Shown one piece after another: positions 3,875 to 44,661 of a stretch of 64,000 nt of DNA. Origin of the DNA: Pseudomonadota bacterium. GTDB lineage: Bacteria; Desulfobacterota; Desulfobacteria; Desulfobacterales; JBDRRP01. Below the pieces are notes generated by a model. It had not been told where the DNA came from. It saw nothing but the letters and a program-made list of their open reading frames with translations, and did not search any database. Position numbers and translations under genes: made by a program. Every line of letters begins with the position of its first letter. Position 1 is the stretch's first letter. Location: positions 1-64,000 of the forward strand of contig JBDRRP010000152.1 of the NCBI GenBank assembly GCA_043825735.1, read 5' to 3'.

Positions 3875-3903
3875 CCACAGATTACACAGATTTACACAGA
3901 TTA
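3875..3903. repeat. Triple short tandem repeat CACAGATT(T)A x3
   Basis: cacagatta cacagattta cacagatta in the WbqC/PIG-L spacer. Confidence 0.85.
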
Positions 3904-3924
3904 GACAACAAAAATATCAATAAA

Positions 3925-12163: not shown

Positions 12164-13393
12164 TTATACTCTTGAAGCTAATATCTTACTGGCCACTGTA
12201 ACTATCACTTCAGCATTCTTTCGCCGGCTGTAGTTTCTGACGATAAATTCCCTCCCATTTCTTCCCATCTCTCCATGTAAGGCTTCTTTTGTAAGCAAGC
12301 GATTAACTCCTTGAGCTAAGATGGCAGGATCTTCCGGGGGAACGAGCACGACAGCACCGCTATTTTTAAAAAAAACACCATTTTCACCAACATCAGAAAC
12401 CACTACCGGTTTACCACAAGCAAGATAATCGAATACCTTAACAGGAGAACTATCGCCAGCACTTCTGTGAAAAGGGGCGACACAAATAGTCATGACCGCA
12501 CAATATGAAGGCACACATTCATAAGGGATGTATCCAGTAAAAATAAAATATGATTGAAGACTTTTTTCTATAACCATGTTTTCCAATGTATTTTTCATTG
12601 GCCCATCACCAACTATCAAAAATCTAACATTTGGGTAATTTCGGATAATCATTGGGGCGGCTTCGATTAGAATATCTATTCCTTGGTAGTGAAAAATTGT
12701 GCCTACAAAACCGATATATGTTAACGACTGATCGAATCCAAGTTCCAAGCAACATTTACGTTTATCCATAGGGAAAAATATCTCGGTATTTGCTCCACTC
12801 GGTAAAACAGTTATTTTCTTCCAAGGAATCCCTTCGAGCCTATGCATATTTATTGCTATTTTTTTTGTAACGGGAAGGACGTGGTCACTCAAATAGAAAC
12901 TTATCTTATCAATAACACGTATTACAAATTTCTTGAAATTATTATTAACTGAAGTGTATGCTCGATGCGGGCTATCATTTATTTCAAGAATAATCGGAAC
13001 GGCAAGAATCCTGCCTAATATCATCGGAATAAATGACCACATTATTCGGACATAAATAACATCTGGAAAATTTTCAGAAAAAGCTAAACGAAGAGCCCAA
13101 AAAAAAGCGATTATCTGGTAGGAAACAAACCTTAATATAGGCAAATCGATAAATGGAACTGAAAATACTTTGGCTGTTGTTTGTCTTTCAGGATAACCTA
13201 TTTTTGGTATAAACAAGTATACTTGGTTTCCAAGGCTGTTGAGATATTTTGTTAATTCGAATACTTTTATTGGTCCGCCGACTTTCTTTTTGAAGAGGTC
13301 ATCATGCCAGTAAACAAATACAAAATATAACAAATTATGAGAGTTTTTACGTATCATAGTGAGTGCAGAATGAAGCTTAGATATTTTTATCAT
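12164..13393 (-). CDS. Glycosyltransferase family 4
   Basis: GFVG..YQG, SPVKVFDYLACGKPVV. Confidence 0.85.
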   Translation of the reverse strand: MIKISKLHSALTMIRKNSHNLLYFVFVYWHDDLFKKKVGGPIKVFELTKYLNSLGNQVYLFIPKIGYPERQTTAKVFSVPFIDLPILRFVSYQIIAFFWALRLAFSENFPDVIYVRIMWSFIPMILGRILAVPIILEINDSPHRAYTSVNNNFKKFVIRVIDKISFYLSDHVLPVTKKIAINMHRLEGIPWKKITVLPSGANTEIFFPMDKRKCCLELGFDQSLTYIGFVGTIFHYQGIDILIEAAPMIIRNYPNVRFLIVGDGPMKNTLENMVIEKSLQSYFIFTGYIPYECVPSYCAVMTICVAPFHRSAGDSSPVKVFDYLACGKPVVVSDVGENGVFFKNSGAVVLVPPEDPAILAQGVNRLLTKEALHGEMGRNGREFIVRNYSRRKNAEVIVTVASKILASRV

Positions 13394-14309
13394 AACTCAT
13401 TTTAGAAATCATTTCGTTAGCTCGTGTATTTAGAATTAATGGAATCCGATAAAACACAATTACAATTGAAACAAGAATTACTGCAAACCTTGTACATATT
13501 TTTACAAAATTAGGCCCTTGCAATAGCCATTCTATCATACTTTTAAACATTACAGTGAAGTTAATGCTAACGGGACTGAAAGGATTTTTCAGTATATAAA
13601 TATAGTAACCATAAGCTGAAGAGAATTTAGCCCTAAAAGTCATTTCTTTTGGGAAAAGCTGTATATGTCGGTGATAAACCACTGCGTTATGGATAACATG
13701 GATTTGAAAACCATGGAATTTTGCTCGGCGGCATAAATCTCCTTCTTCATGATACAAAAAATATATAGGATCAAAGACTCCAATAGTGTTGAAAACATCT
13801 GAACGAAAAAGCATTGCAGCCCCAATAACCGTATCTACTTCGAATGATTCATTGGATTGAATTTTATTGAACAAATCAATAACGCTCTTAAATTTATATA
13901 GTTTTGCGAAATTTTCGTCTACATTTGAACCGTCGTAATCCATCTGAAGGGGGGTTGCAATACCGATATTTATATTATCTTCGCATACATTAATCATTTT
14001 TTCGATACAGTCGGATTTAATCCATAGGTCCTGATTCAAAAGTAAAATATATTCAGCCTTTTTAGACATCGCATATTTGATACCGACATTTGCCCCCCTC
14101 CCGAAGCCTTGATTTCTATCTTGAATAATTGTCAAAACATTTTGAAATTTTTCAGTTATAATCTGAATCGTTGAATCTTTAGATTTATTATCTACTACAA
14201 CAATTTCACAGTTTTTATAGGTACTATCTATAACCGACATAATACACTCATAAATCCAATTCTTCGCATTATATGAAACAATTATTACAAATACTTTTGG
14301 AAAATTCAT
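13377..14309 (-). CDS. Glycosyltransferase family 2
   Basis: IVSYN, VDNKSKD, GFGRGAN, LLNQD, YHEEGD. Confidence 0.88.
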   Translation of the reverse strand: MNFPKVFVIIVSYNAKNWIYECIMSVIDSTYKNCEIVVVDNKSKDSTIQIITEKFQNVLTIIQDRNQGFGRGANVGIKYAMSKKAEYILLLNQDLWIKSDCIEKMINVCEDNINIGIATPLQMDYDGSNVDENFAKLYKFKSVIDLFNKIQSNESFEVDTVIGAAMLFRSDVFNTIGVFDPIYFLYHEEGDLCRRAKFHGFQIHVIHNAVVYHRHIQLFPKEMTFRAKFSSAYGYYIYILKNPFSPVSINFTVMFKSMIEWLLQGPNFVKICTRFAVILVSIVIVFYRIPLILNTRANEMISKMSYDKNI

Positions 14310-14314
14310 ATGAA

Positions 14315-15046
14315 TTATTTCTCTGCTACTATGACAAAATATCGCGGAGTCATTCCGACAACAGGCTTAACTGTATAATCAGAGCGAAACATTGGATTAA
14401 ATATTTTATTGTATATTTTATTGACGTAATTATTTTGAAATAATAGCTGTTGCCGTTGACCGAAAACATTATTTTTATTTATAATATATCGGTTATCTTT
14501 TAATATTTTAATTAGTTCAGTTTTTGAAAATTCATGAGAATGGTATTTATTATTTGGTTTTTCTTTAAAAGAATAAATTTTAGGTGATGTAATTCTCCTG
14601 TTAGGGGATGAAATAATGAGGAGACCATCCTCTTGTAAAAGATTATACAAATTCATCAATGCTCTTGTATAATCTTCTATATGCTCAATTGTTTCAAAAC
14701 AGACAATTACATCATATTTAATCCCTATTTCAAAATAACATATATCACCTATATAATAAGATATATTATGTGCCTGATATGTTTCTTTAGCGAAGGCAAT
14801 CGTAGTTTCATCATTATCGACACCATCCACGCTCTTTGCGCCATTGTCTAATAGAACTCTTGTCCCGTAACCAGTACCACAAGCAATATCAAGTACCGAT
14901 TTATTGCGAGTATATTTAGCTGCAAAATGATAACGAGCCAAGTGATCCTCCTCAATTCGTTTTGAGGAAATCCCCGGGACCATACGCTCGCCTGTGAATT
15001 TTATAGACACAATATCCTCTTCTGACTGTAATTGAAAGTTTTCCAA
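14315..15046 (-). CDS. Class I SAM-dependent methyltransferase
   Basis: FTGER, HLARY, VLDIACGTGYG, FETIEH. Confidence 0.88.
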   Translation of the reverse strand: MENFQLQSEEDIVSIKFTGERMVPGISSKRIEEDHLARYHFAAKYTRNKSVLDIACGTGYGTRVLLDNGAKSVDGVDNDETTIAFAKETYQAHNISYYIGDICYFEIGIKYDVIVCFETIEHIEDYTRALMNLYNLLQEDGLLIISSPNRRITSPKIYSFKEKPNNKYHSHEFSKTELIKILKDNRYIINKNNVFGQRQQLLFQNNYVNKIYNKIFNPMFRSDYTVKPVVGMTPRYFVIVAEK

Positions 15047-15087
15047 CTTGTAGTTATATTAATCAATTTTGCAAAATCTTATTTTTC

Positions 15088-16191
15088 CTAAACTTCTTCA
15101 TAGATTTCAAGTGTTCTTTCTACCATTTTCTGCCATGAAAATTTTCGTGCTTGCTTAATGCTTAGGAACTGCATTCTCCGTCGGAGCTCATGGTTAGAAA
15201 GAACAGTTAGACATACATCATACATATTGTCTTCATGGAAAGGATTAAAGAATACGCCTGCATTACCAACCACCTCCGGAATAGATGAATTGCGTGATGC
15301 TATTATTGGTATGCCGCAAGCCATTGCCTCTGGCAGTACTAACCCGAATCCTTCGTATATTGATGGAAGGACAAAAAGATCTGCCCCTTTATAGACTGCT
15401 GGCAGATTATCCTCATTTACGATACCCGTAAAGATTACTTTTTGACTAAGGTTTAATTCTTTGACTAATACCCTCAACACACGATGACGATCAGTTATTT
15501 TGCCGACTATAACGAGAAAATGTGGAAATATATAAGAAATACGTTTATAGACTTTTATAAGTCGGATAAGATTTTTATGGTAATCACCAGCTCCGACGTA
15601 CAGGATATACGGAGTTCGAATCCCATACTTCTTTGATATTAATTCTGATCTTTCTGCATAAAAATACTTTTCATCAACTCCTTCATGTATGACAATCGTA
15701 CGAGACTCTAAGCCTGGAACCAATTCAATAAGGTCGTTTCGAGTAGAATGGGATACAGCAATTATTCTGTTTGCCTTTTTATCCAAAATCTTCAAGACTT
15801 TTAATTCTAAAGCCTTCGTATTTTTCCCATAGTTCAGTTTAAACGTGAATAGATCATGGATAGTTACAACCCATTTTTTAGCTGGAGGACAATAAGAATA
15901 TATTGGACTATGAGCCGGGCTATGAAAAACGTCAACAGGACCAATAAAGTACTCAATTGGTGGATAGGTCAGATATATCCAAAAATATTTTAAAATTAAA
16001 TCGGGTATCCTAAAACTTTTAACATTAAACAATGGGTCAACATTAATTTTATAATTTGTTCTAAATGAATTAAAAAAAAGACTATACTGATGTTGAATCC
16101 GTGAGTTTTTATACCCCTTTAGAAGATGGTCTATATAACTTCCTACACCGCCTCCATGTTTAAGGATACTAATATCAATTCCAATCTTCAA
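15088..16191 (-). CDS. Glycosyltransferase family 4
   Basis: KIGID N-terminus, TIHD, HKN, EGFGLVLPEAM; start revised to TTG 16191. Confidence 0.88.
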   Translation of the reverse strand: MKIGIDISILKHGGGVGSYIDHLLKGYKNSRIQHQYSLFFNSFRTNYKINVDPLFNVKSFRIPDLILKYFWIYLTYPPIEYFIGPVDVFHSPAHSPIYSYCPPAKKWVVTIHDLFTFKLNYGKNTKALELKVLKILDKKANRIIAVSHSTRNDLIELVPGLESRTIVIHEGVDEKYFYAERSELISKKYGIRTPYILYVGAGDYHKNLIRLIKVYKRISYIFPHFLVIVGKITDRHRVLRVLVKELNLSQKVIFTGIVNEDNLPAVYKGADLFVLPSIYEGFGLVLPEAMACGIPIIASRNSSIPEVVGNAGVFFNPFHEDNMYDVCLTVLSNHELRRRMQFLSIKQARKFSWQKMVERTLEIYEEV

Positions 16192-16228
16192 AATTTCAAG
16201 CCCTCTATAATTAATAACTGTATAATAC

Positions 16229-16631
16229 TTAGTTATGGTCGTTAGCCGTCTCACAGGCTCGACGCCACTGCGTCAACTGCTCGGGGTACAGCCCCTTTTG
16301 GCGACAGTACTCTGCCAACTGCGCCTCGTTGAACCCGGCGCTTTCAAGGACGGCATTGAACTTGTCACGGGCGCTCTATCGATCGGGCTCAGTGTCGCTG
16401 TCGGGTAGCAGCAACCCCCTGTCACGCGCTTGCCGACGCCAGATGTACAGGGTGGCTTCGCTGATGCCTTCCTCCTTGGCCAGGTCGATGATCGGCCGGT
16501 TGTGCGGAGGCATCATCTTTATAAGTACCGCTTCTTTTCGCTCTTTCGAATATCGCATGATCAATTCTCTCTTTCCCCCAATAAACTCAATTATAAAGGC
16601 ATTTAGATCATGCGACAACTACCCTGACACA
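16229..16631 (-). mobile_element. IS3-family transposase OrfA relic with probable left end
   Basis: TGTGTCAGGGTAGTTGTCGCA end at 16631; ATG 16558 MRYSKERKEAVL..GISEATLYIWRRQ, in-frame TAG 16376-16378, then DKFNAVLE..EYCRQKGLYPEQLTQWR; no OrfB; more GC-rich than flanks. Confidence 0.8.
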
Positions 16632-16659
16632 GGGGGTGATTACTGCATAATGAGCTATT

Positions 16660-17526
16660 CTAATCTTTTGTAAATTTCTTAAATTTTCCGCCGCTTATGA
16701 GTCCGATCAACAATCCGTATATTTCATATTTTATTCTTAAACCATGTATATATCGCAAATAATCGAATTGTTCTATACCTGGAACCAAATAATAGATTAC
16801 CCTCAATCTTTCAAGCCACATTCGTATAATCAATTTTCTGTCAATATTTATCCACTTCTTGCAAAATTGATAAAATCCGACGCCATTCACTTTCAATTTT
16901 CTTTTCAGATTTTCAATGCTTTCTTCGTGAGGATGTCTAATTACCATTCGTTCATTATAAAAACGCCTATAGCCCATACATTCAAGTCTAAAACCTAGGT
17001 CCAAATCTTCCCATGCAGCAAAAGTAAAGTTTTCATCAAATCCGCCTACATTAATAAATATATCTTTCTGAAAAGCTATATTATTCGAAGCCCAACTATC
17101 TGAAATATGAATATATTTTTCTAGAAAATTAGGTAGATATGAGTTTTGATATGCAAATACCCGCCCCTTCACCGCTGCGCAATTTCTTTCTATATTATCA
17201 AAAGTATTTTGTATTTGACTAAACCATTCTGGCGCAACGATAGAATCATCATCAATAAAACAAACGATGCCCCCTTGAGCTACCCTTACACCAAAATTTC
17301 GAGCCTTGGCGGGTCCTCCTCTTTTTTGGTGTAAAACATGGAGCCTTATATTCATCTGAGGAGAAAAATGATCTAAAAAATATTTAGTTCCATCAGTAGA
17401 TCCATCGTCGATGATAATTATCTCAACTTCCTTGTTTTGGACTGAAAGACTCAAAGCATTTAAACATATTTTAAGCCAATTTAATCTGTTGAATGTCGGG
17501 ATTATTATACTAATCAATATTATCAC
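16660..17526 (-). CDS. Glycosyltransferase family 2
   Basis: IPTFNR, DDGSTD, ARNFG, FIDDD, WEDLD. Confidence 0.9.
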   Translation of the reverse strand: MIILISIIIPTFNRLNWLKICLNALSLSVQNKEVEIIIIDDGSTDGTKYFLDHFSPQMNIRLHVLHQKRGGPAKARNFGVRVAQGGIVCFIDDDSIVAPEWFSQIQNTFDNIERNCAAVKGRVFAYQNSYLPNFLEKYIHISDSWASNNIAFQKDIFINVGGFDENFTFAAWEDLDLGFRLECMGYRRFYNERMVIRHPHEESIENLKRKLKVNGVGFYQFCKKWINIDRKLIIRMWLERLRVIYYLVPGIEQFDYLRYIHGLRIKYEIYGLLIGLISGGKFKKFTKD

Positions 17527-17693
17527 CTTATGGTAGTCGATTCTGAAAAACTCTTGATTCTCCTCACGAGGGGCAGATCAATGCTCTTTGAGAAAAAAAC
17601 CCAGTAGAATAATAGGCGCAAAAGCGCTGCCAGCCACCTCAGCAGCTTTCTTAATGGAAGGCCTATTCTCATATATCTATCGATTGCCTAAAT

Positions 17694-18590
17694 TCAGAAT
17701 GTCCGCAATATATTCAAATATGCAAATTTTTGTAAAGGTTTCTTCAAAATTGATTTCATATAATATTTGCGCGCTAACTGTTTATTTGATTGCATCTCGC
17801 TTACACCAAGCCGGTTATATACATCTGCCACTCTTTTATTCCAAGAATTCCGTATTTCAGAAACTTCCCTACTAAACTCATTTTCAATTTTTTCATAGAG
17901 CTTTAATCTTTCTATAAATGATTTTACCCCAATATTTCCCCACGAAGTAGTCCGCCTAGTCATATAGGATAGTGGTTTTTTAATATAAATAAAATTGGGA
18001 TAAGCGTAAGAAAGACGAAGCCATTGCAAATAGTCTTGATGTAACAATTGATTTTCATCAAACATTCCGATATTTTTAAAACAATTACGTCGAACAATTA
18101 TTCCAGAAGTGTTAATAAAATTACCAGATTCTAAAAGAGCTTTAAATATTTTTTTTTCTTTAAATTTATTTGAGGTATAATCATTTTTGAAATATTCTGA
18201 TCCGAGACAAATTTCATTCCCCACGGTGTCCACAAAAACCACATCGGAGAACAGCCATTCAATATTAGGATTATTTTCGAATATATTAATTTTATATTCG
18301 ATATTCTCTGGATGAAAATAGTCGTCTGCGTCTAAAAAAGATATATAACTTCCCAAAGCCTTTTCTATTCCATGATTCCTTGCGCTTCCGGGCCCTGAAT
18401 TATCTTGATAATAGTATCTAAGAATATTTGATTCTATATTATTAACCATCTCTTTAGTGTTATCAGTAGATCCATCATCAACTACAATAATCTCAATATT
18501 TGAATAGGTCTGAGATAGAACACTGTTTATAGCTTTTTGCAAAAATTTTTCGCAATTATATGTTGGAATAACAACGCTTACTTTTATCAT
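17694..18590 (-). CDS. Glycosyltransferase family 2
   Basis: IPTYN, DDGSTD, ARNHG, FLDADD. Confidence 0.9.
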   Translation of the reverse strand: MIKVSVVIPTYNCEKFLQKAINSVLSQTYSNIEIIVVDDGSTDNTKEMVNNIESNILRYYYQDNSGPGSARNHGIEKALGSYISFLDADDYFHPENIEYKINIFENNPNIEWLFSDVVFVDTVGNEICLGSEYFKNDYTSNKFKEKKIFKALLESGNFINTSGIIVRRNCFKNIGMFDENQLLHQDYLQWLRLSYAYPNFIYIKKPLSYMTRRTTSWGNIGVKSFIERLKLYEKIENEFSREVSEIRNSWNKRVADVYNRLGVSEMQSNKQLARKYYMKSILKKPLQKFAYLNILRTF

Positions 18591-18742
18591 TTGATTTTTC
18601 CAATTTTCTCATTTTAGAGGCATTTATTTACTATATTTAAAAATTACATATTTCAAATCGATAACAGACCTTAGCCCGATGTAACTTCCTAATTCTATCT
18701 CAATTAGTAGTAATAGATATTCCACTTTTTCAAACTACCGTT

Positions 18743-19642
18743 TCATACTTCAACCCACTTATATTTGATTACATTACTTAACCTTTTATTTCTTATCTCT
18801 TCGAGTCTTTTCGGCAAAAAATGAAAACAATCCTTAACGTCTATCTCTGGCAATTGCTCTTTACCGATATCGTTTCTGATAAACATCAAGTTAAATCCAT
18901 ATCGATTACATGCGACAAGTCTGTAGCCTTTTTGTTTCCCTAACTTTATAAATGCTGGAATTGATGCCCCCATATAATCTAGATGCTTGTCAAAACGATT
19001 AAAATTATGAATATATGGAATTGATACTGATTTTTCACTCTCCCAAAATGCTACAGCCTCTAAAATCACTACCCGTGGTCTTACAATGGTCAGGCTTTCC
19101 CATAGCCAGTAATCAATGCCATCGACATCAAGTGAGAACAAATCAATTTCCCCAATTATCCCATTATCGGATAGGATACTATTAATGTTATCGGGTGAAA
19201 CAATTGCGCATTTATTAATTGGTGGGAATATGCAACTATCTGGATGTCTCTTATAAAATTTATCCGTAGTATTAATGCAAGCCGAATCGGAATCGATCAA
19301 TAAACCGGTAAACCCTAAATTGCAAATTAAATTAGTTGAGTTTGCCCCATAAGGAACTCCACATGCAATATCGACTAATGTCCTGTTAGTAAAACCTATT
19401 AATGAAAATAACTATAACAGGATACCGTCCTCATCAACCTGAGAATATATTCGAAATCCCGCATCTCTAAAACTACATAGATTCTTACGATTTTTACATA
19501 AATCCTGATAATAGATAAATAACTGGCGCTGCATGACCTGTTGGTTCAACCCTTGCCAAAAAAATAGATTCACTTCCGTCATTATTTTTTCTAGAATTTT
19601 ACCAAACATTCGCCTTATCGATTGCTGAACAAATCGCACCAT
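18743..19642 (-). pseudogene. FkbM-like methyltransferase-fold gene interrupted by one in-frame TAG
   Basis: ORFs 19412-19642 and 18743-19300 share a frame; 37 sense codons bridge them after TAG 19412-19414 (YSQVDEDGILL*LFSLIG..ANSTNL..SLDVDGIDY). Confidence 0.8.
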
Positions 19643-19971
19643 GCCTCCTAAATATGGTCAAATTAAGATTAGAAAATATTTTTATTCATATTCCCGTCTA
19701 CTTCTTTCGACTACTTGAAGAGTGTTATTCAATCCCTGCAGTTATTATAAAAATTGTACCCGGTCAAATGTACGGCAATACTTTAGCGATACTACAACGT
19801 GGTACACGTTGCCTAATAATATTTCAAAAGAGTCAATATTATAAAATACTGTTAAAACTAATATATTCTTCTACATTTTATTTGCAAATTGTATGTGACA
19901 AATAACTACTTTATACTGTCATTAATGCTCATAAGCTATAAGCCTCTAAAAGCATATCCAGTCTTTGGCTA

Positions 19972-20604
19972 TTAATTATTAATTTTTGATAAGATAAAGA
20001 ACCTGTGGTACATGAATTCCCAAATTCTATAAGTTTTTAGTATTCTGAAATCTGCCTTGTATATATCAAGAAGAATATTTTTATATGAAAAACCAGTTTT
20101 TCCAATTTCCCAATAGTGTTGACCGTCAAAAATATGCTCGGCTGACCTATGAAATGGGTGTTGGATACTTTTCTTAATCGTCCTGAATCTCGGCAACTCG
20201 ATTAAAAATCGATAAACAGTCGTTATATCAGGCAATGACAATATAACATGTTTCTTTGTCACTCGATTAATTTCTCTCAATGAATTTAGAAACTCAGAAT
20301 ATGGCAAATGTTCTAAGATTTCACAACATGTAACTGTATCAAAATATTTATCACGGAAGGGAATTGACAATACTGATCCAACCACATCCGGCATCAATCT
20401 ATAATCAATATCCAAAGTGGTAATATCTTGATTATGGTCTTTTAAATATCGTGATACAAATCTATTTCCAATCCCGATTTCAAGCAATCTACTGGGTTGC
20501 AACAAAAATATTTCGTTTATTTGATACCAATAACTTATAAATCTCTCTTTTGAATCATAAGAGGATCCAGCATAGTGATCGGGAGCAACTTGTGGATTCA
20601 TCAA
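19972..20604 (-). CDS. SAM-dependent methyltransferase
   Basis: LLEIGIG, EILEHLP, HYWEIG. Confidence 0.82.
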   Translation of the reverse strand: MMNPQVAPDHYAGSSYDSKERFISYWYQINEIFLLQPSRLLEIGIGNRFVSRYLKDHNQDITTLDIDYRLMPDVVGSVLSIPFRDKYFDTVTCCEILEHLPYSEFLNSLREINRVTKKHVILSLPDITTVYRFLIELPRFRTIKKSIQHPFHRSAEHIFDGQHYWEIGKTGFSYKNILLDIYKADFRILKTYRIWEFMYHRFFILSKINN

Positions 20605-20786
20605 TCAACCATAATTATGATAAAATTTGTATTTGCTTATTGCAATAAATACTAAAATATAGGAACCTTGGCAAACTTGGTTAATGAAAGTGAACATTTC
20701 GCGGTGGAGGCAGAAAATAACAGCCCATTAATAAAGTCGATCGAACTACCATGTGGCTCCATTTTAAAATAATGCTTTTATATTCA

Positions 20787-21737
20787 TTAAAGCACCTTCC
20801 ATTCTGGGGGCAATATATCTTTACATAATGAGTTTTTCCTACTAACCCATCTCAATGCATTTGGTGAAATTACAATTTTTTCTTCATTTTCATTCAAATA
20901 TGCACCCCACCAGCTAAATGTGCTTTCTGCAATAATATTATGCTTGCAAAGACTCATTAATCGCAAATCTTCATATGCGTGAGTATCATCGTTCCAGTCA
21001 ACAAACATAGCACTGTTTGAATTTATATTAAATCTGCACCATTCGATATCATCTGAAAAAACATAAAACACTGGATTCTCAAATTTCTCTAAAAAATAGG
21101 CCATCGCCAAGTTTATATAATTCAAATCAGTTGCAAAATACGTTGATGAGCCAACTTTATCAGTTCGCCTTACATGAATTGACACTGAAACTGAATTTTT
21201 TATTTTTTCAGCCGTCGCTCTGTTTTGCTTACTCCATTCATGTTTCACACTTAGCTCATTTAATAGTATTGGGCGGATATGATCAAAATATTTATACGAT
21301 ACCCATGTACCTAAAAGAACGACATTGTCAGGCAAATTAAAAAACTCTTCATCAAAATCGAAAATTCTTTGACTTGCAACTCTTTTTATCAGAAGGGGGG
21401 GCAGTGGTGCACACAATTCATGATCATAATATCGTGTAAAATACCGTATATTACCAGTTTTTTCTGCCACCCTATAAAAAACAGCATGCGCTTTGCTACT
21501 GAATGATTTAAAAAACCTTAAGAGCCCTTCAGTTGTGTCAAAATTCAATATTTCACGTGTTGTAGCAATCTCGGCGTTTATTTTAAAATTATTTAGACAA
21601 TATGATCTGTGAGGATATTGGTCGAACGCATACGAATCCAACTTTAATTGAGTACCATGTTTATGAGCCAGAGCACGACCTGCCGCGTACTGAAAAAGCT
21701 GGTTTCCAAGTCCTCCCATCAGTGATGAAATAATCAT
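20787..21737 (-). CDS. Alpha-1,2-fucosyltransferase-like glycosyltransferase (GT11)
   Basis: GGLGNQLFQY, HVRRTD, VFSDD, STFSWW; start revised to ATG 21737. Confidence 0.88.
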   Translation of the reverse strand: MIISSLMGGLGNQLFQYAAGRALAHKHGTQLKLDSYAFDQYPHRSYCLNNFKINAEIATTREILNFDTTEGLLRFFKSFSSKAHAVFYRVAEKTGNIRYFTRYYDHELCAPLPPLLIKRVASQRIFDFDEEFFNLPDNVVLLGTWVSYKYFDHIRPILLNELSVKHEWSKQNRATAEKIKNSVSVSIHVRRTDKVGSSTYFATDLNYINLAMAYFLEKFENPVFYVFSDDIEWCRFNINSNSAMFVDWNDDTHAYEDLRLMSLCKHNIIAESTFSWWGAYLNENEEKIVISPNALRWVSRKNSLCKDILPPEWKVL

Positions 21738-21742
21738 TTCTT

Positions 21743-23158
21743 TTACACCTTTGTAAACCAAAAACAACCACAACCGTAATCTTGGCTATCTGTTAGCATT
21801 TCTGAAGCCCCATATAAGATATCTCCGCTTTCGTGTGAATCCGGGATTAGGGCATACTGTTTTAACTGTAAATTAGGGAAAAGGTTTTGCACTTGGCGAT
21901 AGGAATAAATTCGATGAGCATTGAAGGCTACTTTTGAGCGACCGACCGGGACAACAACCAGTAGATTGCCCTTTGGCGTCAAAACGCGTGTAAGTTCACT
22001 AGCGGCTTTTTTATCGCCCTCACTGTCTAATGGATCGCCATACCGACCTAACCCAATATGCTCAATTGTGTGCATACATGAAAGAGAGCCAATGCTGTTT
22101 TCAGTAAATTGTAAATTCGTAAGATCGGCTTGAGCGCATTCAAGATTCTCAATGCTGATAAGGGGAGGCCTATAATCATAATGCTTTACCGTAATAAGAC
22201 TGGAAAGTTGTGCTACGAACCGCAGAGTTGAGCCAATATCGATATGCAAATCCGGCATGTTCTGAACAAGAATCCGCATTGCCCAAGCGGGGTGCAGCAC
22301 ATAATGCCGGTCGTAGGTGGTGTTAACCGTAGCATCATCAAGGCATGGGTAACGCTCCTCCCAATGGCAGGAGAAACGGTGATTTCTCTTATTGAGAGCA
22401 TGAAACTCATTAAAATCGTCTCTAAATTTTCCCAATTTCCGTGAGTCGTTCCTTTTTTTTATAAAATAATCAATCACTTTTTTTAAGGAATCCTTAAAAC
22501 GAGGCACAAATCTCTTTGAATATTTATTTTGAATTCTATTTGTTTTGTCAGCCAAATACATTTTATAATTGTGTGTAATTTCCCTTTTACTAAATTCAGA
22601 TACTAACTTTTTTGCTGATTCTGGAACACATACAATGACATCATCATAAATCAAAATATAATGCATTTTATATCGATTTAGGTGCTCAAGCAAGGTGTAA
22701 ATATCAGGGTATTCACCAAGGAAATGTGGGTCTGGAGGCGGTGCCATAAATAGCCTGGCATCATCAATGAATATGAAGTGATCATATGCAGATGAACTTA
22801 TTGCACAAATCTCATCCGATATTGGAGCACGAGAGCCTTTCCCTGCGGTATTCAAGGAGCAGTGATGCGCATCGAGCCAAAAGACTGCAGACTCATTGAG
22901 CTGCTTTATGATTTTAACTAATGCCTCTGACGAGTCCCCGTATTGGAAATTTATATTTCGGATATGTTGGTATTTAGCAACTGCCTCATCAAATAGTTCT
23001 TTTGACAACTCGATGGAAAATACTTTTTTAAAATGATCTGCGGCCCAACTGGACGTAGCCCCTTTAAAAGTTCCCGTCTCTATAAAGACATTGATACCGA
23101 ATGTCCGTTGCACAAACAGCATGAGTTCTTCCGGAGCCCCCTCTCTGACAATACCCAT
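21743..23158 (-). CDS. Two-domain protein: methyltransferase-like N-domain + DUF268-like C-domain
   Basis: FIETGT..FWLDAH..IDDARLF; C-half DIGS..HTIEHIGLGRYGDPLD..FNAHRIY. Confidence 0.7.
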   Translation of the reverse strand: MGIVREGAPEELMLFVQRTFGINVFIETGTFKGATSSWAADHFKKVFSIELSKELFDEAVAKYQHIRNINFQYGDSSEALVKIIKQLNESAVFWLDAHHCSLNTAGKGSRAPISDEICAISSSAYDHFIFIDDARLFMAPPPDPHFLGEYPDIYTLLEHLNRYKMHYILIYDDVIVCVPESAKKLVSEFSKREITHNYKMYLADKTNRIQNKYSKRFVPRFKDSLKKVIDYFIKKRNDSRKLGKFRDDFNEFHALNKRNHRFSCHWEERYPCLDDATVNTTYDRHYVLHPAWAMRILVQNMPDLHIDIGSTLRFVAQLSSLITVKHYDYRPPLISIENLECAQADLTNLQFTENSIGSLSCMHTIEHIGLGRYGDPLDSEGDKKAASELTRVLTPKGNLLVVVPVGRSKVAFNAHRIYSYRQVQNLFPNLQLKQYALIPDSHESGDILYGASEMLTDSQDYGCGCFWFTKV

Positions 23159-23162
23159 ATAT

Positions 23163-24473
23163 TTATCCCTTTGCTACAGACTTCCAAGTTAAAATTGGGG
23201 CCAACATGCCTCTTCTCTTTTCATACCAATACGGAGAGCTGCTTAACCCTCCTTTGATTTCAAAATGTATGCAGGGGTTAACCTCATCAGGCGACAAAAT
23301 CCATTCGCGATGATAACACGCAGCTAATAGCATTAATCTATAGGAACCCTCATTCAATAAATTATTTTGAAGTCGCGTGCTCAGCACGTTTCTTCCTATT
23401 GATATTTTCGGCCAGCTGTTTTCATCACTATCTGTGGTGAAAGACCAAAATAACAACCCATTATCGTCATTATACAGCGCAAAGCCCATCTGAAAAGATC
23501 GGTCCATATCTTTGAGATCAAATTCAATAGTCAAATAGAAATTACTGTCATTTTTGATAGGCACTGTTAACGCAGTACCAGTCTCGTCTGTAATGGCCAT
23601 CCTGATCAACGAAAAATATTTATTTGATAGAGTTTTGTTTTCTTTTTTAAGCCACTCATAACGGTTAGAATTTTTACCTGAATGACTTATGTAACCTAAA
23701 ACAACCTTTTTAATATCATCGCCTAAAATCTCTATAGCCCCATCTACCAGTAAGACTCCCCGGCGACACAGTTGCTGAACCGCTCCCATATTATGACTCA
23801 CAAATAGCACTGTCCTACCTTCTGTTGCCACATTTCTCATCTTGCCCAGACATTTCTTTTGAAATTCAAAATCTCCCACTGCTAAGACTTCATCCACGAT
23901 AAGAATATCTGGTTCGAGATGAGCGGCTACTGCAAAAGCAAGCCGAACAGACATACCACTTGAATACCGTTTGACAGGAGTATCCAAAAATTTCTCAACC
24001 TCGGCAAAGGCAACGATCTCATCGAATTTACGGCTTATCTCCTTCCGGGTCATCCCGAGAATGGTACCATTCAAATAGATATTCTCTCGGCCAGTCAGTT
24101 CTGGGTGGAAGCCGGTTCCCACCTCTAACAGGCTAGCGACACACCCCTTGATGGTGACCCTTCCGGCTGAAGGCTCGGTAATTCGGCTCAAAAGCTTCAA
24201 TAGCGTACTTTTTCCGGCCCCGTTTCGTCCTATAATACCGACAGCCTCTCCACGTTTAATTTCAAAATTCACATCCTTGAGTGCCCATACTTCTTCCACC
24301 GTGTCGCCCTGTATGATGGGCGTTCCTGTTGCAAGGTCTTTTGTCTTATTCCATATTGTACGGGCGTTTTGTACTATCACATCACGAAGAGCAGTGTAGC
24401 CGCCTCTCTCCGTTTGGTGGCCGATGATATATTTCTTGCCGAGGTTTTCGGCTTTGATGACGACATCATTCAT
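23163..24473 (-). CDS. wzt: Polysaccharide ABC transporter ATPase with C-terminal Wzt_C-like domain
   Basis: GRNGAGKST, YSSGM, VDEVLAVGD, VSH, long C-terminal extension. Confidence 0.93.
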   Translation of the reverse strand: MNDVVIKAENLGKKYIIGHQTERGGYTALRDVIVQNARTIWNKTKDLATGTPIIQGDTVEEVWALKDVNFEIKRGEAVGIIGRNGAGKSTLLKLLSRITEPSAGRVTIKGCVASLLEVGTGFHPELTGRENIYLNGTILGMTRKEISRKFDEIVAFAEVEKFLDTPVKRYSSGMSVRLAFAVAAHLEPDILIVDEVLAVGDFEFQKKCLGKMRNVATEGRTVLFVSHNMGAVQQLCRRGVLLVDGAIEILGDDIKKVVLGYISHSGKNSNRYEWLKKENKTLSNKYFSLIRMAITDETGTALTVPIKNDSNFYLTIEFDLKDMDRSFQMGFALYNDDNGLLFWSFTTDSDENSWPKISIGRNVLSTRLQNNLLNEGSYRLMLLAACYHREWILSPDEVNPCIHFEIKGGLSSSPYWYEKRRGMLAPILTWKSVAKG

Positions 24474-24482
24474 AATAAGTCG

Positions 24483-24524
24483 GAGATGGTAGTTTGGAGA
24501 CTGAAGATAGGAGATATTGGATAT
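24483..24524. repeat. Heptamer array x6, consensus GAGATAG (+)
   Basis: gagatgg tagtttg gagactg aagatag gagatat tggatat. Confidence 0.75.
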
Positions 24525-24526
24525 CG

Positions 24527-24892
24527 TTAACCATTTTTCCGTCTTTGTGTAGATTTTATTAATCCAGTAATTAATTTACCGACACCAGCGACATCTTTCC
24601 GTAGCGATATCGCCTGCGGGGCAAGGGTCGGATAACAATCCTCGACAACATACAGCAGGGATCGAACCTCACCTGCTGAGGCACGAGCAATATTATAAAA
24701 CTGGATTTTTTCTTGCACATGCATACGCTCAAAACCCTCGGCAATATTACTCATTATCGAAACTGCCGCCCGCTGTGATTGCCCAGAAAGTCCGTAGTCC
24801 CGCGCAAGGTTTTCATTTGAAGTCATCTGATAAATAGCACTAACCAGCTTTCGTGCCTGCTGCCAAGCCTCCAAATCTTCAAAAGATTTCAT
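24527..24892 (-). CDS. Four-helix-bundle protein (23S rRNA IVP / TIGR02436-like, Avd-related fold)
   Basis: FEDLEAWQ, QSQRAAVSIMSNIAEGFER, IARASAGEVRSLLY. Confidence 0.92.
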   Translation of the reverse strand: MKSFEDLEAWQQARKLVSAIYQMTSNENLARDYGLSGQSQRAAVSIMSNIAEGFERMHVQEKIQFYNIARASAGEVRSLLYVVEDCYPTLAPQAISLRKDVAGVGKLITGLIKSTQRRKNG

Positions 24893-24895
24893 CCC

Positions 24896-24965
24896 CTACC
24901 TCCTATCTTTTATCTCATATTCCCTATCTTCCATCTCCAATCTCCTATCTCCTATCTTCCATCTC
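24896..24965. repeat. Heptamer array x10, consensus CTATCTC (+)
   Basis: ctacctc ctatctt ttatctc atattcc ctatctt ccatctc caatctc ctatctc ctatctt ccatctc in unbroken register. Confidence 0.92.
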
Positions 24966-25817
24966 TTAAATTAAATCCGCAAAAGTTTTTTCCATTTTCC
25001 GGAAGCGGGATACACCCAGATAGAGAAAGAAGGCGGTGATAGCGAGACTGAGAAGGAAACCGGGGAGATATACCGGACTGTTGCCGCCGAGAATGCACCA
25101 GCGGAAACCGTCGATCACCCCGACCATGGGATTAAGGCTGTAAAGCAGTCGCCATTTCTCCGGGACGACATTGCTGCTGAATCCAACCGGCGACACATAA
25201 AGACCGAATTGAACCACGAAAGGGATGATGTAACGGAAATCGCGATATTTCACGTTGAGCGCCGTGATCCAGAGGCCCGGACCAAGACTGGCGAGCAGGG
25301 CCAGAACTACAAAAGCCGGCAGCAACATGATATGCCAACCCGGCAGAAATTGATAATAGACCATCAGGCAAATCAAGATGACAAAACTGATGAGGAAATC
25401 GATGAAGGCGGTGACAATTGTCGCCGCTGGAATGATCAGCCTGGGGAAATACACCTTGCCGATCAGGTTGGCGTTGCTGATCAGACTGTTTGACGATTCG
25501 GAAAGCGAGTTTGAGAAAAGAGACCACGGGAGCATTGCCGCAAAGACCAGTAGCGCGTAAGGGGCGTTACCGTCGCTGGGGAGTTTGGCGATCCGGCCAA
25601 AAATGACGGTGAAGACGACCATCGTCAGAAAGGGCCTGATCAGGGCCCAGAGAACCCCGATGATGGTCTGCTTGTATCGTACGGAGATATCTCGCCAGGC
25701 CAGAATCAGAAACAGCTCTCGGTACCGCCAGAGATCGCTCCAGTAGTTTTTCTCACTGCGGCCGGGCTCTATGATTAGGACCGGCTCTTCAGGATGTACG
25801 GAAGATGAGTTATTCAT
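24966..25817 (-). CDS. wzm: Polysaccharide ABC transporter permease
   Basis: RDISVRYKQT, KVYFPR, YRDFRY, LNPM. Confidence 0.93.
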   Translation of the reverse strand: MNNSSSVHPEEPVLIIEPGRSEKNYWSDLWRYRELFLILAWRDISVRYKQTIIGVLWALIRPFLTMVVFTVIFGRIAKLPSDGNAPYALLVFAAMLPWSLFSNSLSESSNSLISNANLIGKVYFPRLIIPAATIVTAFIDFLISFVILICLMVYYQFLPGWHIMLLPAFVVLALLASLGPGLWITALNVKYRDFRYIIPFVVQFGLYVSPVGFSSNVVPEKWRLLYSLNPMVGVIDGFRWCILGGNSPVYLPGFLLSLAITAFFLYLGVSRFRKMEKTFADLI

Positions 25818-25819
25818 TC

Positions 25820-25857
25820 AGCTCCGCCCCTTGGATTACATCGGGAGCAATGATCCA
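25820..25857. repeat. ~38-bp direct repeat, copy 1 (carries SD for wzm)
   Basis: AGCTCCGCCCCTTGGATTACATC identical at 27078-27100. Confidence 0.85.
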
Positions 25858-26850
25858 TTACCCGACCCGACCACCCGTTTTTCTCGCTATTTCCATGTCG
25901 TTATTGACCATTTGTTCTACCAGGACTGAAAATGACACTGCCGGTACCCATTTTAGTCCTCTTTTCGCTTTAGCAGCATCACCCAGAAGCAACTGCACCT
26001 CTGCAGGGCGGTAAAGCGCATCTTCAATTTTCAAATACTGCCTATAGTCCAGGCCCACATGGCCGAAAGCAAGTTCCAGAAACTCTCTCACAGTGTGGGT
26101 TTCGCCCGTGGCAATGACATAGTCCTCCGGCTTTTCCTGCTGAAGCATCAACCACATGGCGTAAACGTATTCCTTTGCATGGCCCCAGTCACGTTTAGCC
26201 TCCAGGTTGCCCAGACGGATTTCGTCCTGCAGGCCTAGTTTGATTCGGGCAGCCGCCGAAGTGATCTTCCTTGTGACAAATTCGTGGCCGCGTCGGGGGG
26301 ATTCGTGGTTGAACAGTATGCCGGATAGGGCGAAAAGGCCGTAACTTTCCCGGTAATTGCGGGTCAACTCGAAGCCGGCCATTTTGGATATGCCGTAGGG
26401 TGAGCGGGGGTGAAAGGGCGTCTTCTCGGTTTGGGGAGTTTCTTCTACCTTGCCGAACATTTCGCTGGATCCGGCAAAATAGAACCGGCACTCAGGTGCC
26501 AGGCGTTTGATAGAGGAGAGGACATAATGCGTGCCGTTCAAATTGGTGGCGATAGTGGAAAACTCATCCTCAAAAGAATAGGATACATAGCTCTGGGCTG
26601 CCAAGTGGTAGCATTCGTCCGGGATAATGTCAGAGATGACGTTAAATAGACTGGCGTAGCTCTCCATGGATGCACTGTGGATGTGAAGCTTGTCCAGTAT
26701 GTGCCGGATTCGCCACATGCGTTGATAAGGGTCCTCCAGCGCGACTCGGCGAACGATCCCGTGCACTTCATAGCCTTTTTCAAGAAGCAATTCCGCCAAA
26801 TAGCTCCCATCCTGTCCCGTTATTCCGGTGATCAGTGCTTTTTTAGGCAT
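25858..26850 (-). CDS. gmd: GDP-mannose 4,6-dehydratase
   Basis: GITGQDGSYL, LAAQS, SSEMFG, YGISK, FNHESPRR, RDWGHA. Confidence 0.95.
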   Translation of the reverse strand: MPKKALITGITGQDGSYLAELLLEKGYEVHGIVRRVALEDPYQRMWRIRHILDKLHIHSASMESYASLFNVISDIIPDECYHLAAQSYVSYSFEDEFSTIATNLNGTHYVLSSIKRLAPECRFYFAGSSEMFGKVEETPQTEKTPFHPRSPYGISKMAGFELTRNYRESYGLFALSGILFNHESPRRGHEFVTRKITSAAARIKLGLQDEIRLGNLEAKRDWGHAKEYVYAMWLMLQQEKPEDYVIATGETHTVREFLELAFGHVGLDYRQYLKIEDALYRPAEVQLLLGDAAKAKRGLKWVPAVSFSVLVEQMVNNDMEIARKTGGRVG

Positions 26851-27220: not shown

Positions 27221-27298
27221 TCAACCGCCTAAATCACCGGAAAGAATCTGCCGGATTTCATCGATAAATCTTGAAAAATCATCCAAGTGATTTTTCAT
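27221..27298 (-). pseudogene. Probable C-terminal relic of DUF86/HepT toxin
   Basis: ATGA-coupled to MNT stop; MKNHLDDFSRFIDEIRQIL resembles HepT last helix; only 25 aa. Confidence 0.45.
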
Positions 27299-27735
27299 TT
27301 TCGCTCCGCTCGAATTGCCGACCGACGTATGCGTTCAGATCTTAATTTCTCGATAAATGGCATGAAATCAAAGTACAGACCGCGAATTTTGCTCTCGTAT
27401 GCCAGTCTTTGATCTTGGTCAATCTCATAAAGGCACCGACCGCTGCTTATCACCTCATAGGCCATCTCAATGGAGGCGCCATTTAGAATCGTGACATCGG
27501 TTTCTTTATCGAGTGACATGGCAATCTTGGTGGCCACGCTATAGGCCGGTGAAATCGCTACGACAGGATCTGAGGCGTAAACACGTTCATCCACAAGAAA
27601 AGCCAGATCCACATCTGATGATTGTTTATGGGTACCGCTTGCAGACGAACCGAACAGATACGTGGCAACGATTTGGTCATCTCGCTTAATCGCTTCGGCA
27701 ATCAATCCTGATATGGTTTCTACGATACTGGGCAT
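27295..27735 (-). CDS. Minimal nucleotidyltransferase (MntA-like antitoxin)
   Basis: YLFGS-x10-DVD (GSSASGTHKQSSDVD), YFDF C-terminal. Confidence 0.88.
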   Translation of the reverse strand: MPSIVETISGLIAEAIKRDDQIVATYLFGSSASGTHKQSSDVDLAFLVDERVYASDPVVAISPAYSVATKIAMSLDKETDVTILNGASIEMAYEVISSGRCLYEIDQDQRLAYESKIRGLYFDFMPFIEKLRSERIRRSAIRAERK

Positions 27736-27738
27736 TGT

Positions 27739-28224
27739 TCACTTAACCAAATTTCGAATTTTATCTCTAAAAGCATTGATATCAGTTAACACGCACTCCT
27801 TGTGAGCGATTACCCGGCGCAATAAGAACCCGACACGCTCATCGTCAAGGTGATATGTGTAGGCATGCCTGAAGACATGCCGAAACCCTCTGAGTTCATC
27901 GAGATGGGAGTATGACTCAGCACTAATCAACGGCGGTCGAACGCCCTCGATTTCAGCCATCATCCGCTTTAAAATGTTGATATGAAAACCGCCGTTGCTG
28001 GAAACATTGTTTTCCCAAAACCCGACAACCAGTTTAAACAGATCCTCGTAGGCGCAGTAAAGATTGTGCAGCTGGTATCCTGTACTGTCGACCATCTCCG
28101 GGCTTGCCGGGTTCCTGTTGAAAGACTGAAGGCGTTTTTCCAAAACCGCATAGATTTGTGCGATCTGCTGAAGTTGACTATCAAAATCGCCTAGGAAAAC
28201 TGTGATTCGCGCCTCGGGTGCCAT
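27739..28224 (-). CDS. HEPN (HepT-like) ribonuclease toxin
   Basis: LHNLY..ED, RGFRHVFRHAY (R-x4-H followed by AY). Confidence 0.85.
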   Translation of the reverse strand: MAPEARITVFLGDFDSQLQQIAQIYAVLEKRLQSFNRNPASPEMVDSTGYQLHNLYCAYEDLFKLVVGFWENNVSSNGGFHINILKRMMAEIEGVRPPLISAESYSHLDELRGFRHVFRHAYTYHLDDERVGFLLRRVIAHKECVLTDINAFRDKIRNLVK

Positions 28225-28577
28225 TTAAAACCTTCCGATTCGATTGATTTAGAAAAATGACAATCTTCAAGATTAATCACGTCAACCGTTCGATTCAGTA
28301 ATGAAGAAATCTCGGACACAAACATAAAATATTTTTCTTTATCGAGTCCTCTTATCGCAACGTCAACGTCACTCTCAGGGCGGAATTTATCCATTTTTGT
28401 CACGGACCCAAAAATATAAGCGGCGTCCCATGAGTATTGCATGGAAAGCGACGTCAACGCTGCCTCGATCTCATTCAACACTGATTCCCTCAGCGATTCC
28501 CGTTCTTCACGCTGTCGTTCTTGAGCCTTGAGCCATACGGCTATGGATTTATCAATCGTCACCAGCTTCACTTCCAA
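28191..28577 (-). CDS. Minimal nucleotidyltransferase
   Basis: YIFGS..SDVDVA, VDVINLE; start uncertain. Confidence 0.85.
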   Translation of the reverse strand: MEVKLVTIDKSIAVWLKAQERQREERESLRESVLNEIEAALTSLSMQYSWDAAYIFGSVTKMDKFRPESDVDVAIRGLDKEKYFMFVSEISSLLNRTVDVINLEDCHFSKSIESEGFKWHPRRESQFS

Positions 28578-28678
28578 GATATTCCAAAATAGCTGTCTTT
28601 ATCGGAATAGGACATGATTTGATGAAAGTATTGTTCCAGTTCAGCCAGTTTTCTAAGAACCAGCGTTCGATCGACCAT
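28568..28678 (-). pseudogene. N-terminal relic of DUF86/HepT toxin
   Basis: TAATG-coupled to MNT stop; MVDRTLVLRKLAELEQYFHQI is typical of DUF86 starts; ends after 36 aa. Confidence 0.65.
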
Positions 28679-29091
28679 TAAAAAAACCTCTCTTCGAGGA
28701 TACGGCTCTCGAATTTGTGAAAATCAAAGTATTCGCGTATGGTCGCAGACTCAAAAGCGTGGCGCTTGAAAGGTTGATTTTCGCAAATCACCTGACGGGG
28801 TTTAATGATTCGATATTTTAGCGACAATAACGCTGAGTTTAGAACGACAAAGTCTATATCATCTGTTTTCAGAATATCGTTTAAATGCCCCAAAAGATCG
28901 AGATGCCTTTTTGTAGTGTACGGTTCGATGAGATAAACCGCAATATCGATATCGCTCATTGCAGTGATTCGGCCGGTTGCCTGGCTTCCGAATAAATACG
29001 CAAATGCGACATCGGCTTGTCTGGAAAGAAAAACCGTCACTGCCGGCAGCTTACTGCTAAAATCTTGGGTGATGGGTTTTTGGTGTATCAT
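28678..29091 (-). CDS. Minimal nucleotidyltransferase (MntA-like antitoxin)
   Basis: YLFGSQATGRITAMSDID (GS-x10-DxD), IDFVVLN, EYFDF. Confidence 0.9.
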   Translation of the reverse strand: MIHQKPITQDFSSKLPAVTVFLSRQADVAFAYLFGSQATGRITAMSDIDIAVYLIEPYTTKRHLDLLGHLNDILKTDDIDFVVLNSALLSLKYRIIKPRQVICENQPFKRHAFESATIREYFDFHKFESRILEERFF

Positions 29092-44327: not shown

Positions 44328-44661
44328 CCCAATTTGGAACCGCCGCAACAAAAACCCGTTTTCGCGCAGAGACGCAGAGACGCAGAGGAACCCAAATTTG
44401 AAAACCGCAAAAACCACAGTTGGTGGTAAGAAACGCCTTTACCGCCGTGCAAAAAATGTTTCCTCTCGTTTCAGATTCAGTTGTTCTCAGCGTCTTCGTG
44501 GTTTCACGGTTGAACCGATTTTTCCCTCCGTGTTCTCTGAGAACTCCGTGGTTCAAACGGTTTTTGCCCCGGAATGCCCCTGCAAGCGCACAATGTTACC
44601 GAATGGCAAACAATTCCTGTCTCTTAGATGATTCGAAGCGTTATATCAATGCCCGCAAACA

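Follow-up and report, generated by a model that had tools for sequence, protein, structure and literature searches.

Opposed heptamer arrays around a four-helix-bundle gene at a wzm-wzt junction, an ordinary member of a widespread cassette family

Described relatives of the cassette

Mobile insertion cassettes carry a passenger gene between terminal inverted repeats. The intervening sequence (IVS) in the 23S rRNA of Coxiella burnetii contains an S23p open reading frame (ORF) and ends in a 28-bp terminal stem with mapped RNase III cuts; three to four tandem heptamers, strain-variable in number, stand 5' of the S23p start, and the origin of the IVS is described as unclear (PMC4990558). Repetitive extragenic palindromic (REP) sequences and REP-associated tyrosine transposases (RAYTs) form systems in which a single-copy gene is bordered by inverted repeats of its own, the repeat flavour differs from gene to gene, and gene-less inverted doublets (REP doublets forming hairpins, REPINs) are dispersed in large number (PMC3116915). 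Intergenic arrays of TAACTGA and similar heptamers in Beggiatoaceae, Cyanobacteria and Bacteroidetes end just before starts that lack a Shine-Dalgarno (SD) sequence; their origin and binding protein are given as unknown, and the author raises the idea that the mobile element is a protein binding the repeats (PMC4679880). A likeness of PF05635 proteins to Avd of diversity-generating retroelements (DGRs) has also been stated (PMC10053308). Here, we describe a four-helix-bundle gene that stands between two opposed heptamer arrays at the junction of wzm and wzt (positions 24,474 to 24,965), in a stretch of 64,000 nucleotides of contig JBDRRP010000152.1 from a bacterium of the Desulfobacterales. 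The window below means this whole stretch, and L-, G- and C-numbers are labels of loci, genomes and contigs, G000 being the genome of the window and C152 its contig.

In layout, the window cassette is the same as the Coxiella IVS that RNase III excises (PMC4990558); an earlier note on this DNA had named it a candidate mRNA intervening sequence. Size (428-444 nt there, ~490 here), protein family and sense orientation in the host transcript agree, and so do the heptamers ahead of the start codon and the complementary ends forming a long stem. However, the Coxiella ORF is reported as decaying (PMC4990558), whereas the window ORF is under purifying selection. Furthermore, the window cassette lies in a protein-coding operon (wzm-wzt) and not in 23S or 16S rRNA, and its excision is hypothetical. 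A gene with its own inverted arrays plus dispersed gene-less doublets recalls the REPIN-RAYT systems; yet RAYTs are tyrosine (HUH) transposases and REPs are palindromes, whereas here a non-catalytic-looking four-helix bundle goes with tandem 7-9-mer arrays. The likeness to miniature inverted-repeat transposable elements and mobile insertion cassettes lies in a paralogous clade with 8-mer units, found in elements that end in inverted repeats, are flanked by 8-bp duplications and show internal deletions; the window copy differs in having neither a duplication nor terminal repeats beyond its arrays. With DGR Avd the window protein shares the fold of its predicted model, but there is no reverse transcriptase (RT) beside the gene: RT matches lie on C147, C51, C50, C69 and C24, and none on C152. 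Nor was a template/variable repeat pair noticed, although no search was aimed at one. The arrays of PMC4679880, in contrast to those described here, are treated as unpaired direct repeats, and no connection to the PF05635 family is named there. The cassette is thus IVS-like in layout but not by location, and RAYT/REPIN-like in organisation but without the transposase. The literature searched, which included few subscription papers and no supplements, held no description of an array-flanked PF05635 cassette outside rRNA.

The copy between wzm and wzt is a typical, ordinary member of a widespread cassette family, and the interest lies in the family. With moderate confidence, we read it as a guest cassette whose protein recognises its own unit. 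The arms would then be inverted DNA arrays, and the stem that they form in the mRNA would be secondary and not a control of wzt.

On the minus strand, gmd and wzm are followed by a 73-nt spacer, the 121-codon ORF, a 53-nt spacer and wzt (Table 1). The first of the 10 in-register heptamers of the upstream spacer starts at the base directly 3' of the wzm TAA. In this arm 59/70 positions agree with GAGATAG, just one copy is perfect, and Tandem Repeats Finder calls a period of 7 with 10.7 copies. The downstream spacer (24526-24474) holds six complementary units in register, which are degenerate (31/42 positions agree with CTATCTC, none perfect), receive no call from Tandem Repeats Finder and end 9 nt ahead of the wzt ATG. 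The GGAGG of the insert lies inside the purine array, 6 nt 5' of the insert's ATG, and the wzt start is without an anti-SD complement (duplex +0.4 kcal/mol). The earlier note had both the positions and the content correct. No sigma-70-like promoter was found in 24300-25300, against 1.9 expected.

The window protein matches TIGR02436 with 96.6 bits (cut-off 24) and PF05635 with 100 bits (cut-off 33.8). PF05635 is its sole domain match, and a Y1 (HUH) transposase domain is absent from it. Searched by phmmer, it matches 2GSC (E 1.7e-12) and 2RLD. The predicted model (pLDDT 97.5) is all-helical with four long helices. It superposes on Xcc0516 (2GSC) with TM 0.87 and E 1e-5, and on DGR Avd (4DWL) with TM 0.74 at 14% identity, in agreement with the Avd-like fold proposed before; the protein is basic (pI 9.4). 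Among the window and the orthologous loci L001 and L002, dN/dS is 0.074, 0.096 and 0.14 for the insert and 0.107, 0.072 and 0.091 for wzm, and dS of the insert is of the same order as that of wzm. With dN/dS as low as that of wzm and dS comparable, the gene is maintained by purifying selection and is an old resident of the wzm-wzt junction.

Units, protein clades and gene-less arrays

As the earlier note had proposed, TIGR02436 genes were surveyed for opposed arrays. The 103 profile matches in fetched loci were reduced to 86 by completeness and flank filters and to 83 by dereplication at 90%, a sample biased to relatives of the window protein and to the top matches of one order. Flank complementarity was scored strand-symmetrically, with the 95th percentile of mismatched flank pairs as the threshold. 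Complementary flanks above this threshold surround 49 of the 83 family members, compared with 2/500 control ORFs of G000, and in 28/83 the true partner flank ranked first. The repeat period is 7 in 68 members, 8 in nine and 9 in four.

In the survey, the unit tracks the protein clade. In a quick tree, the window protein falls within a clade of 23 rows (SH-aLRT 97) from Verrucomicrobiota, Planctomycetota, Bacteroidota, Nitrospirota and records labelled Proteobacteria. The units of this clade are of the GRAGAT/GGAGTT type, except for L010 and, weakly, L002, and other clades have other units. Non-cognate flank pairs scoring at least 30 rise from 5, 6 and 15% to 49 and 83% over rising bands of protein identity (58 loci, in which kin are non-independent). 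Furthermore, three paralogues of G000, those on C15 and C151 included, carry three different units. Neighbour orientation could be called in 62 of the 83 loci: 51 are sense on both sides, seven and four lie at operon edges, and none is antisense inside an operon. Cassettes occur also at cysD-cysN and many other junctions, and 77 of 121 genomes of the order have a PF05635 gene, with up to 15 copies.

Most of the 524 arrays of period 7-9 in G000 are not near a four-helix gene. Within 900 bp, 49 array pairs are opposed, against 14 in the same direction; 44 of the 49 opposed pairs have no ORF of 90 codons between them, and in 41 the purine arm comes first, as in the cassette. Arrays just 3' of a stop are purine-type in 62/75 cases, and those just 5' of a start are pyrimidine-type in 50/69. 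A unit-based search listed 122 metagenomic loci, of which 80 were fetched with flanks and 79 used after one duplicate was dropped. In 76 of these 79 there was no four-helix gene within 900 nt, and three had the gene nearby. An opposed arm without a gene was present in 22, and 16 gene-less loci had less than 450 nt of room. As a side observation, a single four-helix gene and two genes with a GxxExxY motif lie on C151 (30.9 kb) together with ~25 arrays of period 7-9.

A multicopy non-coding element of G000 (60-330 bp) has terminal inverted repeats that are imperfect, opposed 8-mer arrays inside them and AT-rich duplications of 8 bp (contigs C11, C16, C53, C55, C71, C93, C115 and others; loci L155-L184). 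It has 25 core matches in G000, of which 21 were aligned (7 sense, 8 antisense, 6 other), and its left end occurs in 25/151 genomes of the order. The duplications are perfect in 4/15 complete G000 copies and agree in at least 7/8 positions in 8/15, compared with 1 and 7 of 210 mismatched pairs; in 30 loci of other genomes they are perfect in 5/13 complete copies. Both ends, including sequence beyond the arrays, are common to this element and the gene-bearing L128 (80% over 75 nt and 78% over 63 nt). With shared ends, a deletion series runs from L178 (= L128, intact gene) over L157 and L159 (gene fragments) to gene-less copies. The terminal repeats, the duplications and the deletion series together show that the 8-mer paralogue clade moves as DNA, with the enzyme supplied in trans. 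No long element bounded by matching ends with a duplication was found in the draft assembly of G000, nor was an autonomous transposase for the terminal-repeat element. The idea that the core of the multicopy element is a decayed four-helix ORF received no support (among 10 ORFs, the best was reached by 6/200 shuffles and most by 30-196).

From these data, we propose a promoterless cassette of ~490 bp, in which two opposed arrays of a short unit flank a conserved four-helix-bundle gene. Its entry into the wzm-wzt spacer dates to an ancestor of the polysaccharide locus, as the filled, relic and empty alleles described below and the wzm-like divergence indicate. Its predominantly sense orientation points to transcription from the host operon. 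The arms grow and shrink by slippage (1-10 units in orthologues), and their similarity is maintained in the unit as a whole, not pair by pair. Because of the coupling between unit and clade, and because of the gene-less derivatives, the basic Avd-like protein most likely recognises its own unit on DNA or RNA, comparable to REP-associated transposases and REPs. Such recognition would keep gene and arms together and help the spread of arm pairs, most of which would since have become gene-less. Movement as DNA relies on enzymes supplied in trans, at least in one clade with terminal-repeat elements; this is shown for that clade and not for the window copy. In the mRNA, pairing of the arms could close behind the ribosomes, so that the wzm stop comes to lie close to the SD-less start of wzt. 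The stem probably softens the cost of insertion and in rRNA would supply an RNase III site, both as a consequence of the layout.

Alternatively, the arrays could be dispersed repeats independent of the gene, which collect around small foreign genes of any kind and shuffle them; the protein would be a passenger that does not read the arrays and is useful to the host as a regulator or defence accessory. The many G000 arrays away from four-helix genes and the predominance of gene-less loci in the unit-based search fit this idea, as do the GxxExxY genes, seven of which in G000 have 8-9-mer arrays of their own alongside (opposed or paired), and the MNT/HEPN toxin-antitoxin genes in the same locus. 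It sits poorly, however, with a unit that tracks the protein clade over five phyla and is a different one in each of the three G000 paralogues, and with a cognate unit that is rare elsewhere in G000 yet present on both sides of the four-helix gene. We regard independent repeats as improbable.

Several observations weigh against the guest cassette with a unit-reading protein. Same-direction flanks were found in 10/83 family members and weak flanks in about a quarter, and L140 has a GRAGAT/GGAGTT-type unit although it lies outside the 23-row clade. The coupling between unit and clade could be plain co-inheritance. Opposed arrays also surround the unrelated GxxExxY gene type of L078, so they are not exclusive to the four-helix protein, and only 2-4 other arrays of G000 have the window unit. 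The terminal-repeat element holds an intact four-helix gene in 1/30 sampled copies, also has unrelated contents (L164, L165, L171), and may be an independent vehicle. Reading the flanks of the window copy by eye revealed no target duplication and no terminal repeat outside the arrays. Finally, filled and empty alleles are intermixed on a wzm tree of 37 rows (quick search), on which gain and loss at the wzm-wzt site are not separable.

A far-reaching extension is that PF05635 proteins are sequence-specific readers of a large, undescribed class of mobile units, each clade binding its own 7-9-mer, and that gene-bearing cassettes and gene-less arm pairs together make up a system similar to RAYT/REPIN but with no catalytic transposase. 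We consider this extension, its boldest form included, to be doubtful. If true, the heptamer arrays of cyanobacteria, Beggiatoaceae and Bacteroidota, long without an explanation, would have their source in such units, and the rRNA IVSs would represent cassettes that landed in rRNA. In the boldest form, an Avd-like pentamer would take up the cassette RNA, closed by its stem and set free by RNase III, and pass it to a host reverse transcriptase, which would account for strictly sense insertion into mRNA and rRNA. PF05635 is very common and has no assigned function, and the cassette links it to heptamer arrays and ORF-bearing rRNA IVSs, the origin of both being left open in print (PMC4990558, PMC4679880).

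The wzm-wzt junction and its transcript

Seventy-three loci were gathered by protein, and wzm relatives were taken as the best 20 among 301 genomes of the order. The cassette lies between wzm and wzt in 7/73 protein-selected loci. Its orthologues in L001 and L002 (81% and 79% identity) have upstream arms of 4 and 1 units and arm duplexes of -18.6 and -14.1. A fourth orthologue (L261, 75%) has ~9-10 downstream units reaching the wzt ATG, its upstream side being cut by the contig end. Across orthologues, arm length varies from 1 to 10 units.

None of the best 20 wzm relatives has an intact four-helix gene. The empty alleles that the idea of an inserted cassette calls for were looked for and found in 14 of them, where wzt follows after a plain spacer of 5-29 nt; the remaining six comprise a 63-nt spacer, a relic, two other inserts, a contig edge and an unclear case. 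In the relic (L107, G252), what follows wzm is an upstream arm of five units and 13-14 codons from the beginning of the four-helix gene, and then unrelated DNA. In L078 (G033), the same junction is occupied by another small gene (131 aa, with a GxxExxY motif named by eye) between its own opposed CGCAGAG-type arrays. In each of the four empty alleles tested, wzt likewise has no SD and starts 5-11 nt from the wzm stop; the insert therefore splits what was probably a coupled wzm-wzt pair. Filled, relic, empty and differently filled alleles among close relatives make the site a good test bed. A further arrangement was seen in L012, where the cassette apparently stands behind a short wzt-like 5' fragment and is followed by array-rich DNA and another wzt start; this seems to be a duplication through recombination between arrays.

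The earlier note had raised a regulatory switch of polysaccharide export. In one version, register slippage or a change in array length would tune wzt relative to wzm, perhaps via the protein. Such a dedicated switch finds some footing in the seven loci at this junction and in arm lengths that differ between strains. Furthermore, the wzt initiation region is predicted to be less open with the stem formed (unpaired 0.43) than with the upstream arm blocked (0.64). Yet the 14 close wzm relatives with empty alleles do without the cassette, most family members sit at other junctions such as cysD-cysN, an unrelated cassette occupies the same site in L078, and arm length is not conserved, with arms shrinking to 1-4 units in orthologues. 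We judge the switch very improbable.

The two arms pair at -46.7 kcal/mol, compared with -33.8 +/- 3.8 for dinucleotide shuffles, an energy equalled by 1, 3 and 2 of 1000 shuffles in three shuffle schemes. The fold of the 561-nt stretch, which the earlier note had asked for, gives z = -3.2 and places the ORF in a loop closed by a long duplex, as anticipated there. The stem has ~36-39 pairs, in runs of 3, 6, 2, 2, 8, 10, 4 and 4, with pair probabilities mostly > 0.9, and it persists in a fold in which the inner ORF and its ribosome site are kept unpaired. The stem likely forms in the mRNA. Beyond the arrays, the flanks are free of longer inverted ends, the window copy having only array-level 7-bp inverted ends. 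A scan against Rfam found no rRNA family in this DNA; two weak matches, far under the gathering score, were taken as chance.

Two further expectations fared less well. Register slippage is predicted in part: alternative registers are close in the two-strand calculation (-45.5, -45.3 and -42.5 kcal/mol), but in the full fold a single register prevails. The proposed masking of the insert's SD is not supported in this dominant register, in which GGAGG lies outside the stem and is unpaired with the downstream arm; the register that pairs it costs 1.2 kcal/mol relative to the best one in the two-strand calculation.

A stem of this kind invites the explanation that the cassette is an mRNA intervening sequence, its arms selected for RNA pairing, so that the ORF is looped out, wzm-wzt coupling is restored and RNase III perhaps cuts. 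The length of the stem is compatible with ribosomes on the inner ORF, an RNase III gene is present in the genome, and the Coxiella IVS offers a precedent with heptamers, a 28-bp stem and mapped cuts (PMC4990558). Moreover, the upstream arm begins exactly at the wzm stop, and the SD-less wzt of the empty alleles gives a rationale for bringing the wzm stop close to the wzt start.

Selection on the pairing as such, however, could not be substantiated. If mRNA pairing were under selection, G-U should outnumber A-C on the sense strand. In 59 loci we counted 167 G-U against 175 A-C (22 loci against 25), and the mismatched pairs used as a baseline have a small bias towards A-C (3018 against 3485), which limits the power of this test. 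Nor was there an effect of unit order in the window copy: whole units, when permuted, pair equally well in 629/2000 trials, which makes the stem a product of the shared unit alone. In 4/10 cysD-cysN loci the sole in-frame cysN start lies ahead of the downstream arm, within the loop, and a fifth has its ATG there, so routine excision would behead such genes. The inner ORF enters the arm region by at least 20 nt in 10/59 loci, some of which are long C-terminal fusions; in L009 and L010 it reads through the arm and abuts the wzt start, which would allow coupling without a stem. The much weaker stems of the L001 and L002 orthologues also argue against this explanation, as does the fact that RNase III cuts are not religated, so that cutting would split the operon mRNA. 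The nulls on RNA selection and the start positions lower the support for an mRNA intervening sequence, to which we assign a small though real chance. No RNA run was found to contain the organism of the window. In the contigs of four data sets (X1-X4, of which X1 may be the source sample) no joint skips the cassette, and since contigs do not reveal RNA ends, this speaks neither for nor against excision. A joint of 24515 and 24893 on opposite strands, in a 153-nt contig from RNA of another organism (X4), was not counted, as a single array aligned to two complementary arms gives such a joint.

Coordinates and neighbouring genes

Table 1. Features of the cassette and its host genes in the window.
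Feature	Position	Strand	Basis
wzm-type ABC-2 permease gene, upstream host gene	24966..25817	-	PF01061 at 72.6 bits; galactan Wzm model under its cut-off, E 1e-17
Upstream arm of purine heptamers, 10 in register, consensus GAGATAG/GAGATGG	24893..24965	-	sequence, Tandem Repeats Finder
GGAGG, Shine-Dalgarno-like, of the inserted gene, within the arm's last units	24899..24903	-	sequence
Four-helix-bundle gene, 121 aa, TIGR02436 / PF05635 (S23p, IVS protein family)	24527..24892	-	profile matches, model
Downstream arm of pyrimidine heptamers, 6 degenerate units with consensus CTATCTC, the upstream unit's reverse complement	24483..24524	-	sequence
Predicted long-range stem closing a loop around the entire ORF; 24952-24911 with 24482-24523	24482..24952	-	fold
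wzt-type ABC ATPase gene, without SD, downstream host gene	23163..24473	-	PF00005 83.3 bits; TagH/Wzt models below cut-off

The best NCBIfam matches of the two neighbours are Wzm-type and TagH/Wzt-type models, both under their cut-offs. Along 13377-26850, the G+C content falls from 0.52 in gmd and wzm to 0.445 in the insert, 0.43 in wzt and 0.35 in the downstream transferases, compared with 0.575 for the genome. This fall and the difference from the genome value mark the region as a foreign, mosaic polysaccharide locus.

Upstream of gmd, at 27295-29091, lie parts of type VII toxin-antitoxin systems, namely a HepT-like gene and three genes for MntA-type nucleotidyltransferases. A short ORF at 16376-16618 resembles the first part of an IS3-type transposase. 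Elsewhere in the window, a single 9-mer array (3876-3907) ends ~30 nt ahead of a start codon on the minus strand, and opposed CGCAGAG/CTCCGTG-type arrays form a gene-less pair at 44365-44560.
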